NCBI GenBank assembly: GCA_965237745.1 | Contig: OZ250156.1 | Location: 95,596 to 159,595, forward strand | DNA: 64,000 bases | Source: Dehalococcoidia bacterium | GTDB lineage: Bacteria > Chloroflexota > Dehalococcoidia > Lucifugimonadales > UBA3495 | Direction: 5' to 3' | Program-made: the position numbers and the translations under genes | In this document: in pieces, positions 18,337 through 19,713 of the stretch | Layout: each line of letters starts with the position of its first letter | Numbering within the stretch: the stretch's first letter is position 1 | Notes under the pieces: generated by a model | Databases searched by the model: none | The model's input: the letters and a program-made list of their open reading frames with translations, nothing else | Told to the model about the DNA's origin: nothing

Positions 18337-19713
18337 CTAGCGCCGTCGCTGGTCGCGGTAGTTGGGGGCGTCGATGGCCACCCATTCCACGACCATGCTG
18401 TCCACCAAACGGGAGGCTATGCGCGGCTTGCCGTCCTCAAGTTCCTGCATTGTAGACGCCGTGGTGATGACGGTTGCCAGCTTGGCTTCGTGCCGGTGCA
18501 CCACCATCTGATACAGCTTCTCCTCAGCCCACGGAGTGCTGTTCTCCGATCCCAAGTCGTCGAGTATCAGCAGCGGGACGTTGAGGACCTGCTCGAATAG
18601 CTCATCAAAGTGCACCGGGCTATCGGGGCTGTAGGTCATACGCAGGTGGTCAAGCAGAGTGGGAACAAAGGCGAAGAAGACCTGCCGTCCTTGCCGCAGG
18701 CTCTCCCCGGCGATGGCAACGGCCAAGTGGGTCTTCCCGGAACCGCGACTGCCGGTGAACAGCAGCCAGCCCTCGGGAAAGGTGGCAAAGGTCTGGGCGG
18801 CGTGGAGGGCCCGGGCAATTTCCTCTTGGTCCTTCCTTGTCGCCCCGAGACCTCCGGCCACGTCAAAGTCGGCAAAGGTCATGCGAGACAGCATCTCTGG
18901 GCGCACTTCGCCAATTCCCAGCGCCAAGCGGCTGTTGAAATGCCCCAGCTGCAGCACCGTCGAACGCCCCTCGGCCTCCAGCCGGGTGCGGGATGATTCG
19001 TCCAGCTTGGTCAATGGACCCCGGACGGTCAGCACGGTGGGCAGGGAGTTGTTGTACCGATGGTTTATCACTTGGAACAGCTTCTCCTGTGCCCACGGCG
19101 TTGAGCTGTGAGCGCCCAAGTCGTCGAGAATGAGCACCGGCACGTTTCTCACCTGCTCGAACAGCTCGTCGTAAGCAATCTCGCTGGTCGGCGAATAGGC
19201 GGCCCGCAAGTGGTCCAGCAGGTCGGCGACCATTATGAAGAATGCCGTCTGCTGCCGTTCAATGCAGCGGTTGGCGATGGCGGCTGCCAGGTGCGTCTTG
19301 CCGCTGCCGGAGGGGCCGGTCAGGACCAGCCATCCATCCGGGTTCTCCGCGTAGGCGGCCGCAGTGGGCAGGGCCTCGGCGAACATTCGCCGCGACGCCA
19401 CATCGGACAGCGGGCCCTCAGCGCGGGTCGCCCCGAAGGTGAGGCGAGACAGGGCCCCAAGGTTGCTGTAGCGGCGCAGGGACTCCAGCCGCGAGGGGAG
19501 CGAGTCCTCCGTCTGACGGCACTGGCAGGGCGTGGCCTGCCCGAAGCTCGGGTGCCCCACATGCACGCGCTGCGTCACCCAGCCACTGCCGTTACAGTGG
19601 GGGCAGCCGTCAGCGCGTTCCGGTTCGGGGGCTGGCACGACCCCGCCGCCGTTCGTAGTCTTGGCTATACTTCTTTCGCTGATCCTGCGGAGAATTTCGC
19701 CCAGGCTTTCCAT
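18337..19713 (-). CDS. DnaC/DnaI-like helicase loader with two tandem ATPase modules and an N-terminal Cys cluster
   Basis: [10 protein letters not shown]...PCQC at the N-terminus. Module 1 has [20 protein letters not shown] and VLILDDLG. Module 2 has [20 protein letters not shown] and LLILDDLG. The two modules align along about 150 aa. Confidence 0.7.
   Translation of the reverse strand: [458 protein letters not shown]

Follow-up and report, generated by a model that had tools for sequence, protein, structure and literature searches.

The DNA examined here, called the window below, is a stretch of 64,000 nucleotides (nt) from a Dehalococcoidia bacterium (assembly GCA_965237745.1, contig OZ250156.1), and coordinates are positions in it unless another locus is named. 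It contains a single unbroken open reading frame (ORF), with an ATG start codon preceded by a Shine-Dalgarno-like GGGAG motif, whose product is very probably a helicase loader that has undergone a genuine internal duplication. The protein consists of a tail of 35 amino acids (aa), a Cys4 zinc-ribbon-like domain, and two AAA+ modules of the DnaC/IstB type (Table 1). Its gene is part of a cluster that reads rplI - dnaB - dnaD-like - loader on one strand, with all three neighbours upstream of the loader gene. An earlier note on this DNA, made from the sequence alone, had placed a DnaC/DnaI-type loader gene at this position, adjoining dnaB and a dnaD-like gene, and the ORFs and their Pfam and NCBIfam domains bear this out.

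Table 1. Features of the putative loader gene, its product, and its neighbours. Frequencies given as x/101 refer to 101 diverse tandem proteins, those given as x/428 to all 428 tandem proteins. pLDDT, predicted local distance difference test score.
Feature	Position	Strand	Details
Tandem helicase-loader coding sequence (putative), 458 aa plus stop codon	18337..19713	minus	ORF list; Pfam and NCBIfam models each matching in two stretches
N-terminal tail, aa 1-35	19609..19713	minus	Predicted disordered or lone helix; pLDDT <50 at residues 1-4 and 12-32
Cys4 zinc-ribbon-like N-domain, aa 36-70 (C37, C40, C63, C65)	19504..19608	minus	CXXCXGXG motif; presumed helicase-binding
First zinc knuckle, aa 37-42	19588..19605	minus	Start of CPHCNGSG
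AAA+ module 1, aa 88-265	18919..19452	minus	First IstB_IS21 stretch; pLDDT >90
Module 1 Walker A GPSGSGKT, K139	19294..19317	minus	Lys in 426/428; GPSGSGKTH is aa 133-141
Module 1 Walker B VLILDD, D197 D198	19120..19137	minus	D197 in 101/101; position 198 D/E in 92/101; VLILDDLG is aa 193-200
Module 1 Arg finger R244 (E. coli DnaC R220)	18982..18984	minus	Arg in 93/101, Lys in 4/101
Inter-module linker, short, aa 266-275	18889..18918	minus	pLDDT dip
AAA+ module 2, aa 276-458	18340..18888	minus	Second IstB_IS21 stretch
Module 2 Walker A GSRGSGKT, K327	18730..18753	minus	Lys in 427/428; GSRGSGKTH is aa 321-329
Module 2 Walker B LLILDD, D385 D386	18556..18573	minus	D385 in 97/101; position 386 D/E in 86/101; LLILDDLG is aa 381-388
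Module 2 Arg finger R435 (E. coli DnaC R220)	18409..18411	minus	Arg in 96/101
dnaD-like gene, 254 aa, DnaD / DnaB_2 domain	19610..20374	minus	PF07261 E 1.9e-6; TIGR01446 34.1 bits (cut-off 24.95)
dnaB, replicative helicase, 457 aa	20391..21764	minus	DnaB_C E 1.3e-95; DnaB N-domain E 8e-28
rplI (ribosomal protein L9), at the head of the conserved cluster	21767..22216	minus	ORF list

When the N-terminal half of the protein was compared with the C-terminal half by BLASTP, module 1 (aa 88-239) aligned with module 2 at 50% identity (E 1e-49), a similarity far beyond chance. Together with the two-stretch domain matches, this substantiates the claim that the 458-aa protein contains two homologous AAA+ modules. 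At the DNA level, the likeness of the two modules amounts to a single stretch of 94 nt with 77% identity. The best Pfam family was IstB_IS21 (PF01695; E 5e-37, 128 bits against a cut-off of 24.1), which matched in two stretches, as did Bac_DnaA, and the NCBIfam model PRK08116 for a DnaC-like subfamily reached 218.6 bits against a cut-off of 189, a score that sums the two modules. The NCBIfam model for IstB, IS21_help_AAA, gave 142.5 against a cut-off of 200. Module 1 aligned with DnaI (4M4W), Aquifex DnaC (3ECC), and E. coli DnaC (6QEL), and module 2 with Aquifex DnaC and residues 102-237 of E. coli DnaC. By most criteria the loader belongs to the DnaC/DnaI/IstB superfamily of AAA+ proteins, the exceptions being sensor I and the homology of the N-domain, and it is an equivalog of neither DnaC, DnaI, nor IstB.

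In the AlphaFold2 (AF2) model of the full-length protein, which was built from an alignment of 54 sequences, the mean pLDDT was 84.8 and the predicted template modelling score (pTM) was 0.66, with the AAA+ modules mostly above a pLDDT of 90. A two-module construct (aa 80-458) modelled from a deeper alignment gave a pLDDT of 92.0 and a pTM of 0.73. In Foldseek comparisons, the predicted modules reached template modelling (TM) scores of 0.76-0.79 with Aquifex DnaC (3ECC), 0.74 with DnaI (2W58), and 0.66, at a root-mean-square deviation (rmsd) of 2.5 Å, with DnaC in the E. coli complex of DnaB, DnaC, and single-stranded DNA (ssDNA) (6QEM, chain 6QEM_G). In these models, each module is an AAA+ fold of the DnaC/DnaI type.

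The roles of individual residues were taken from Puri et al. 2021 (PMC8213410) and transferred by alignment, using the E. coli DnaC sequence from MG1655. All Walker A and Walker B motifs that had been quoted for the two modules were located and are intact, and both modules also carry an Arg finger and a sensor II Arg. K112 of DnaC (Walker A) corresponds to K139 in module 1 and K327 in module 2, D169 and E170 (Walker B) to D197 D198 and D385 D386, R220 (Arg finger) to R244 and R435, and R237 (sensor II) to R262 and R453. Both Walker B acids are present in 395/428 of the tandem proteins in module 1 and in 396/428 in module 2, the Arg finger in 414/428 (exceptions being mostly Lys) and 421/428, respectively, and the full set of K, D, D/E, and R in both modules in 65 of the 101 diverse members. 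The gap placement by HMMER had paired R435 with R216 of DnaC; the residue was reassigned to R220 on the basis of its near-invariance and of a comparison of the phage motif GKRSYDRM with GKPRIASRL and with GERVMDRM of E. coli. The ssDNA tetrad has counterparts in both modules as well, with K143, F146, S177, and Y179 of DnaC corresponding to R170, Y173, T205, and W207 in module 1 and to R358, Y361, T393, and W395 in module 2; its Arg is present in 96/101 and 93/101 and its Trp in 97/101 and 95/101 for modules 1 and 2, respectively. Judged by their sequences, both modules look competent for binding ATP and ssDNA, and both look able to donate an Arg finger.

The Arg coupler R216 of DnaC corresponds to S240 in module 1 and to R431 in module 2, where the position is Arg in 44/101, and the sensor I residue N203 corresponds to R231 and A419, so that neither module has the polar sensor I residue that is required for ATPase activity in DnaC. 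Asn is found at sensor I in 45/101 in module 1 and 12/101 in module 2, some distant family members having kept it, and in the clade of the window protein the module 1 position lies in a fixed TVRG. In E. coli DnaC, the N203A exchange abolishes ATPase activity and causes the most compromised loading among the active-site mutants (PMC8213410). Lacking this Asn, both modules are likely to be impaired in the chemistry of hydrolysis. The earlier note had spoken of two complete modules, which is right for Walker A, Walker B, the Arg finger, and sensor II but overstated with respect to sensor I.

The N-terminus of the loader is conserved among homologues, and the four cysteines of its zinc-ribbon-like domain, arranged as CxxCxGxG-(22)-CxC, are invariant in the 54-sequence alignment (A2). 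CPHCNGSG (aa 37-44) is an exact DnaJ-type CXXCXGXG motif, although the Pfam model DnaJ_CXXCXGXG gave a sub-threshold score of 19.8 bits (cut-off 32.7), and PCQC is found at aa 62-65. In the AF2 model, the Cys4 segment is predicted to form a small beta hairpin with strands at residues 45-47 and 60-62, at moderate confidence (block-mean pLDDT 60-74). Neither Pfam DnaI_N nor any other model of a helicase-binding domain matched the N-domain. In B. subtilis DnaI, the zinc ligands are C67/C70/H84/C101 and the fold differs (PMC2673437). The cysteine motifs reported as a DnaI-like cluster are present, but their pattern is that of phage DnaC-like loaders; a DnaI-type N-domain was rejected, given the missing DnaI_N match and the weak resemblance to DnaJ CXXCXGXG only.

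The ATG of the dnaD-like gene is at 20374, 17 nt past the stop codon of dnaB, and the 3' end of this gene is overlapped by the start of the loader gene for 104 nt in a different frame (19610-19713). Of 65 related loci, 40 have an identical 104-nt overlap and 64 have one of 89-176 nt, a conservation that suggests translational coupling and a dual-coding constraint on the N-terminal tail of the loader. The closest database protein, P0001, is 99% identical to the loader and is encoded on an ENA contig of a metagenome-assembled genome (MAG) (ctg246085_24x_c, ERZ25072076, 5,259,719 bp; locus L001). At L001, the gene order around the loader is identical to that of the window, with the same dnaD-like gene and an identical rplI, whose 149-aa product has Ribosomal_L9_N/C domains. 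A peptidase S15 gene and phoU are further neighbours of the loader gene. By tblastn, the 64-kb window yielded no DnaC-like gene apart from that of the loader.

A scan of a collection with one genome for each species yielded 549 candidate stretches encoding a relative of the loader, of which the best 80 were examined. Their sources were MAGs labelled Dehalococcoidia, SAR202, or Chloroflexota, many of which are chromosome-level records with OZ/OY accessions. All 80 stretches were full length (aa 1 to about 458), and the ORF was intact, at 456-492 aa, in 79/80 genomes. Mean identity to the window protein was 0.74 for module 1, 0.73 for module 2, 0.68 for the zinc domain, and 0.59 for the N-terminal tail, and the linker between the modules was also conserved. 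When 1.84 billion cluster representatives (50%-identity clusters) were searched exhaustively with HMMER, 601 clusters were retrieved at E<1e-30; the 150 best were mostly proteins of 405-500 aa that aligned end to end at 32-61% identity and contained Walker A and Walker B twice each. With a single-module relative as the query, most of the proteins retrieved were tandem forms of 413-471 aa, with Anaerolineae, Caldilineales, Promineifilaceae, and Chloroflexota/Chloroflexi as the source names where these were given. The names obtained for carriers of the tandem form were all those of MAGs.

The order dnaB - dnaD-like - loader is found in the window and at L001, L084, and L086, whereas at L085 the loader gene directly follows dnaB; at Anaerolineae-type loci, recA comes right after the gene of the tandem loader (L086 7512-8558, L087 4866-5912). 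The cassette of dnaB, dnaD-like gene, and tandem-loader gene is present in both Dehalococcoidia and Anaerolineae, and in at least two classes of this phylum, the Chloroflexota, a tandem loader is what is usually found. In databases it is labelled 'ATP-binding protein', 'AAA family ATPase', or 'DNA replication protein DnaC'. The tandem loader is common in nature and visible in databases; our literature searches found no publication describing or characterising a tandem DnaC/DnaI loader. The suggestion that the architecture is undescribed is thus consistent with the literature, but the architecture is by no means rare.

Relatives with other numbers of modules were also detected. P0123 (L084 6001-8484) is a protein of 827 aa with four complete DnaC-type AAA+ modules after one Cys4 domain, each with Walker A and B, a TTN sensor I, an SRL Arg finger, and a PDYR sensor II. 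Its gene is the last in the order dnaB - dnaD-like - loader, and that dnaB (L084 3433-5259, 608-aa product) contains an intein (PF14890 Intein_splicing). P0295 (L085 6001-8385) and P0122, from another sample, have three modules in 792-794 aa; all three Walker B motifs read ILDGLG, the C-terminal tail is repeated too, and there is no separate dnaD-like gene at L085. The first two modules of these proteins are near-identical, which points to a recent internal duplication. Single-module relatives with the N-terminus and zinc domain of the family (P0166, 281 aa; P0215, 259 aa; and P0231 with its cluster P0384-P0388) were seen on short contigs only. P0166 and P0215 look like a tandem protein minus module 1, since their module and its lead-in resemble module 2. 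The number of concatenated modules is evolutionarily plastic, ranging from one to four.

In a neighbour-joining tree of the modules, modules 1 and 2 were not reciprocally monophyletic, and identity between modules in the same position exceeded that between positions only for closer pairs, with distant pairs converging at about 0.33. In cross-scoring with hidden Markov models, 99% of the Anaerolineae-type module 2 sequences scored higher with the Dehalococcoidia model of module 2 than with that of module 1, and the Anaerolineae-type model of module 1 was the better one for 74% of the Dehalococcoidia-type module 1 sequences. This weak signal of positional orthology is compatible with one old duplication before the split of the classes and later re-amplifications, without proving it. 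The tandem form was found neither in the phage DNA collection nor in BFVD, where the relatives have a single module. Brezellec et al. 2016 described the dna[CI] of Chloroflexi as a domesticated phage gene and listed a single dna[CI] for each genome of cultured Chloroflexi, apart from Herpetosiphon with three, and no dciA, leaving a tandem form unmentioned (PMC5109545). The single-module DnaC-like genes of phages, which come directly after a DnaD-like gene, overlap it, and encode a CxxC...CxC N-domain, fit such a domesticated phage gene.

Our findings suggest that the protein is probably a chromosomal helicase loader of Chloroflexota which consists of a covalent pair of loader protomers, associates with DnaB as DnaB6:loader3, and has a slowed ATPase. 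In contrast to all characterised loaders, its AAA+ module has been duplicated in tandem behind a single Cys4 N-domain. In the proposed scheme, both modules should bind ATP and ssDNA, each ATP site being completed by a neighbouring module. The conservation of both Arg fingers implies that both ATP sites are bipartite and hence that assemblies are larger than one chain. One AAA+/AAA+ interface would be intramolecular and the other would lie between chains, so that three chains, with their modules packed side by side, could build a cracked spiral of six modules on the DnaB hexamer, similar to that of DnaC but with only three helicase-binding N-domains, and the pairing within each chain would fix register and stoichiometry. 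The distance from Walker A to Walker A is 186-191 aa in 366/399 homologues (92%), and this fixed spacing and the pTM and pLDDT of the two-module construct argue for a defined inter-module geometry. With R231 and A419 at sensor I, ATP turnover would probably be slow or differently triggered, and ATP may act mainly as a switch for assembly and DNA binding. Translational coupling is probable for the overlapping dnaD-like gene, whose product, by analogy with Firmicutes and phage systems, could be a co-loader or remodeller.

The 6:3 pseudo-hexamer as a mechanism is put forward tentatively, with a confidence somewhat short of even. The same reserve applies to the wider proposal of a concatenated loader with DnaB6:loader3 stoichiometry, alternating non-equivalent ATP sites, and a plastic number of protomers, which would be the first tandem AAA+ protein of the initiator/helicase-loader clade. 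We know of no example of a linked multi-AAA+ protein from this clade, and literature searches for one were also negative.

Several observations weigh against this interpretation. With the sensor I Asn missing in both modules, one or both sites may be non-catalytic, and across the family a polar residue is found at sensor I in just 220/428 for module 1 and 114/428 for module 2. Relatives with one, three, and four modules occur in the same gene context, which means that a strict '3 x 2 = 6' arrangement is not obligatory. The equivalog models for DnaI (NF006505, 114.2 against a cut-off of 228) and DnaC (NF005931, 113.4 against 357) stayed below their cut-offs, and the N-domain has no detectable homology to the helicase-binding domains of DnaI or DnaC, so that helicase binding through it is an assumption. 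The pTM of the two-module construct is moderate. Finally, our search for loaders covered the 64-kb window, and DciA or a second loader may be encoded elsewhere in the genome.

A possible but rather unlikely alternative is an asymmetric specialisation, in which one module is the working ATPase and DNA-binding module and the other a regulatory or scaffolding pseudo-ATPase, comparable to delta/delta' of the clamp loader or to the way in which D1 and D2 share the work in type II AAA+ proteins. The two modules do differ in how often sensor I is Asn or polar in the family, the window protein has an Arg-coupler equivalent in module 2 only (R431 as opposed to S240), the second Walker B acid has been lost in about 7-8% of homologues in each module, and just 65/101 diverse members keep the catalytic set in both. 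However, the modules are equally conserved (0.74 and 0.73), and the Walker A Lys, the Arg fingers, and the ssDNA tetrad are near-universal in both. In the window protein itself, neither module has a canonical sensor I and there is no obvious 'active' module, which counts against such a specialisation. Among the 428 homologues, the loss of an ATP site showed no correlation with that of a particular Arg finger, the losses being too few to give a signal on which Arg finger serves which ATP site.

Less likely still is a 6:6 stoichiometry with twelve AAA+ modules, where six N-domains would sit on DnaB and one module per chain would enter the spiral, the second module forming a second tier or engaging DnaA, the DnaD-like protein, a second DnaB hexamer, or extra ssDNA. 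Characterised DnaC/DnaI loaders bind DnaB 6:6 via their N-domains (PMC8213410; 4M4W), and the four-module relatives do not divide evenly into six. Double rings of the p97/Cdc48 type also gave the top Foldseek E-values, but their superposition was poor (TM 0.25-0.44, rmsd 9.5-17 Å); these chains top the list because they, too, carry two modules, and the predicted arrangement does not correspond to D1-on-D2 stacking. A p97-like stacked double ring, as in type II AAA+ proteins, was rejected on account of this poor superposition and of the DnaC type of the modules. The short linker and fixed spacing, the two Arg fingers, and the two tetrads are most simply explained if the modules occupy equivalent positions in one spiral, which favours the 6:3 arrangement over the 6:6 one. 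The four-module variants suggest that looser stoichiometries may also be considered.

It is very improbable that the gene encodes the IstB transposition helper of an IS21-type element or belongs to the replication genes of a prophage. Its best Pfam family is IstB_IS21, and among the annotated entries of the phage collection its nearest relatives are phage DnaC-like genes, but no IstA transposase or phage gene is found among its neighbours, the IS21_help_AAA score is below the cut-off, the cassette is syntenic across classes, and the gene and the window have similar GC contents (0.64 and 0.62, respectively); gene context and equivalog score led us to reject this origin. An artefact, whether a fusion of two single-module genes by a sequencing or assembly error or a collapsed or expanded repeat, is the least credible reading, because the window does derive from a MAG but the same ORF is intact in 79 independently assembled genomes and recurs in hundreds of metagenomic clusters from different sources, the two modules share just 77% DNA identity over 94 nt, and the linker is conserved, which also disposes of the collapsed assembly or missed stop codon that the earlier note had named as a possible refutation.

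The understanding of helicase loading in bacteria is built on three paradigms with a single module each, DnaC, DnaI, and DciA/lambda P. The double rings of p97/Cdc48/NSF/ClpB and the single-chain ring of dynein are precedents for internal AAA+ duplication with division of labour. A tandem loader would be a natural linked-subunit construct, in which ATP sites, Arg fingers, and DNA patches could be mutated one position at a time, which is impossible with the homo-oligomeric DnaC. If the proposed 6:3 mechanism is true, such a construct would be a means of finding out which ATP sites and N-domains a helicase loader really needs, and it bears on the open questions of how many loader protomers or ATP sites are required and of how the asymmetry of the cracked spiral is used. 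Halving the number of helicase-binding domains per AAA+ module predicts a DnaB:loader stoichiometry different from the known one. Our results also refine the picture of a domesticated phage dna[CI] in Chloroflexi by adding an internal duplication that has been retained at least in Dehalococcoidia and Anaerolineae.

Compared with DnaC of E. coli and Aquifex aeolicus (6QEM, 3ECC), the tandem loader shares the AAA+ fold, Walker A and B, the Arg finger, sensor II, and counterparts of the ssDNA tetrad, and its presumed task, the loading of DnaB, would be similar by analogy. It differs from DnaC in that each chain has two modules and not a single one, a Cys4 N-domain takes the place of the helical helicase-binding domain, the sensor I Asn is replaced in both modules, and an Arg coupler is present in module 2 only. 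Like B. subtilis DnaI (4M4W, 2W58; DnaI-N, 2K7R), which is the best sequence match in the PDB (E 6.5e-15), it has a zinc-binding N-domain, predicted in the present case, followed by AAA+, and a gene for a DnaD-domain partner adjoins the loader gene. The ligand pattern is CxxC-22-CxC here and C67/C70/H84/C101 in DnaI, and the AAA+ module is in tandem here.

The loader of Bacillus phage PfEFR-4 shows a similar genetic arrangement, with gp37 and gp38 (DnaD-like and DnaC-like) in the same gene order and with overlapping genes, the same CxxC...CxC N-domain, and about 31% identity to both modules, whereas the phage DnaC-like loaders are single-module proteins of 200-340 aa. IstB of IS21 elements (5BQ5, 8Q3W) shares PF01695 and membership in the AAA+ initiator clade, but the tandem loader has no IstA partner and no mobile-element context, and it possesses an N-terminal zinc domain and a tandem module. 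The covalently linked multi-AAA+ proteins p97/Cdc48/NSF/ClpB and dynein belong to different AAA+ clades, and the predicted arrangement of the loader is not superposable on p97-type chains (TM <=0.44).

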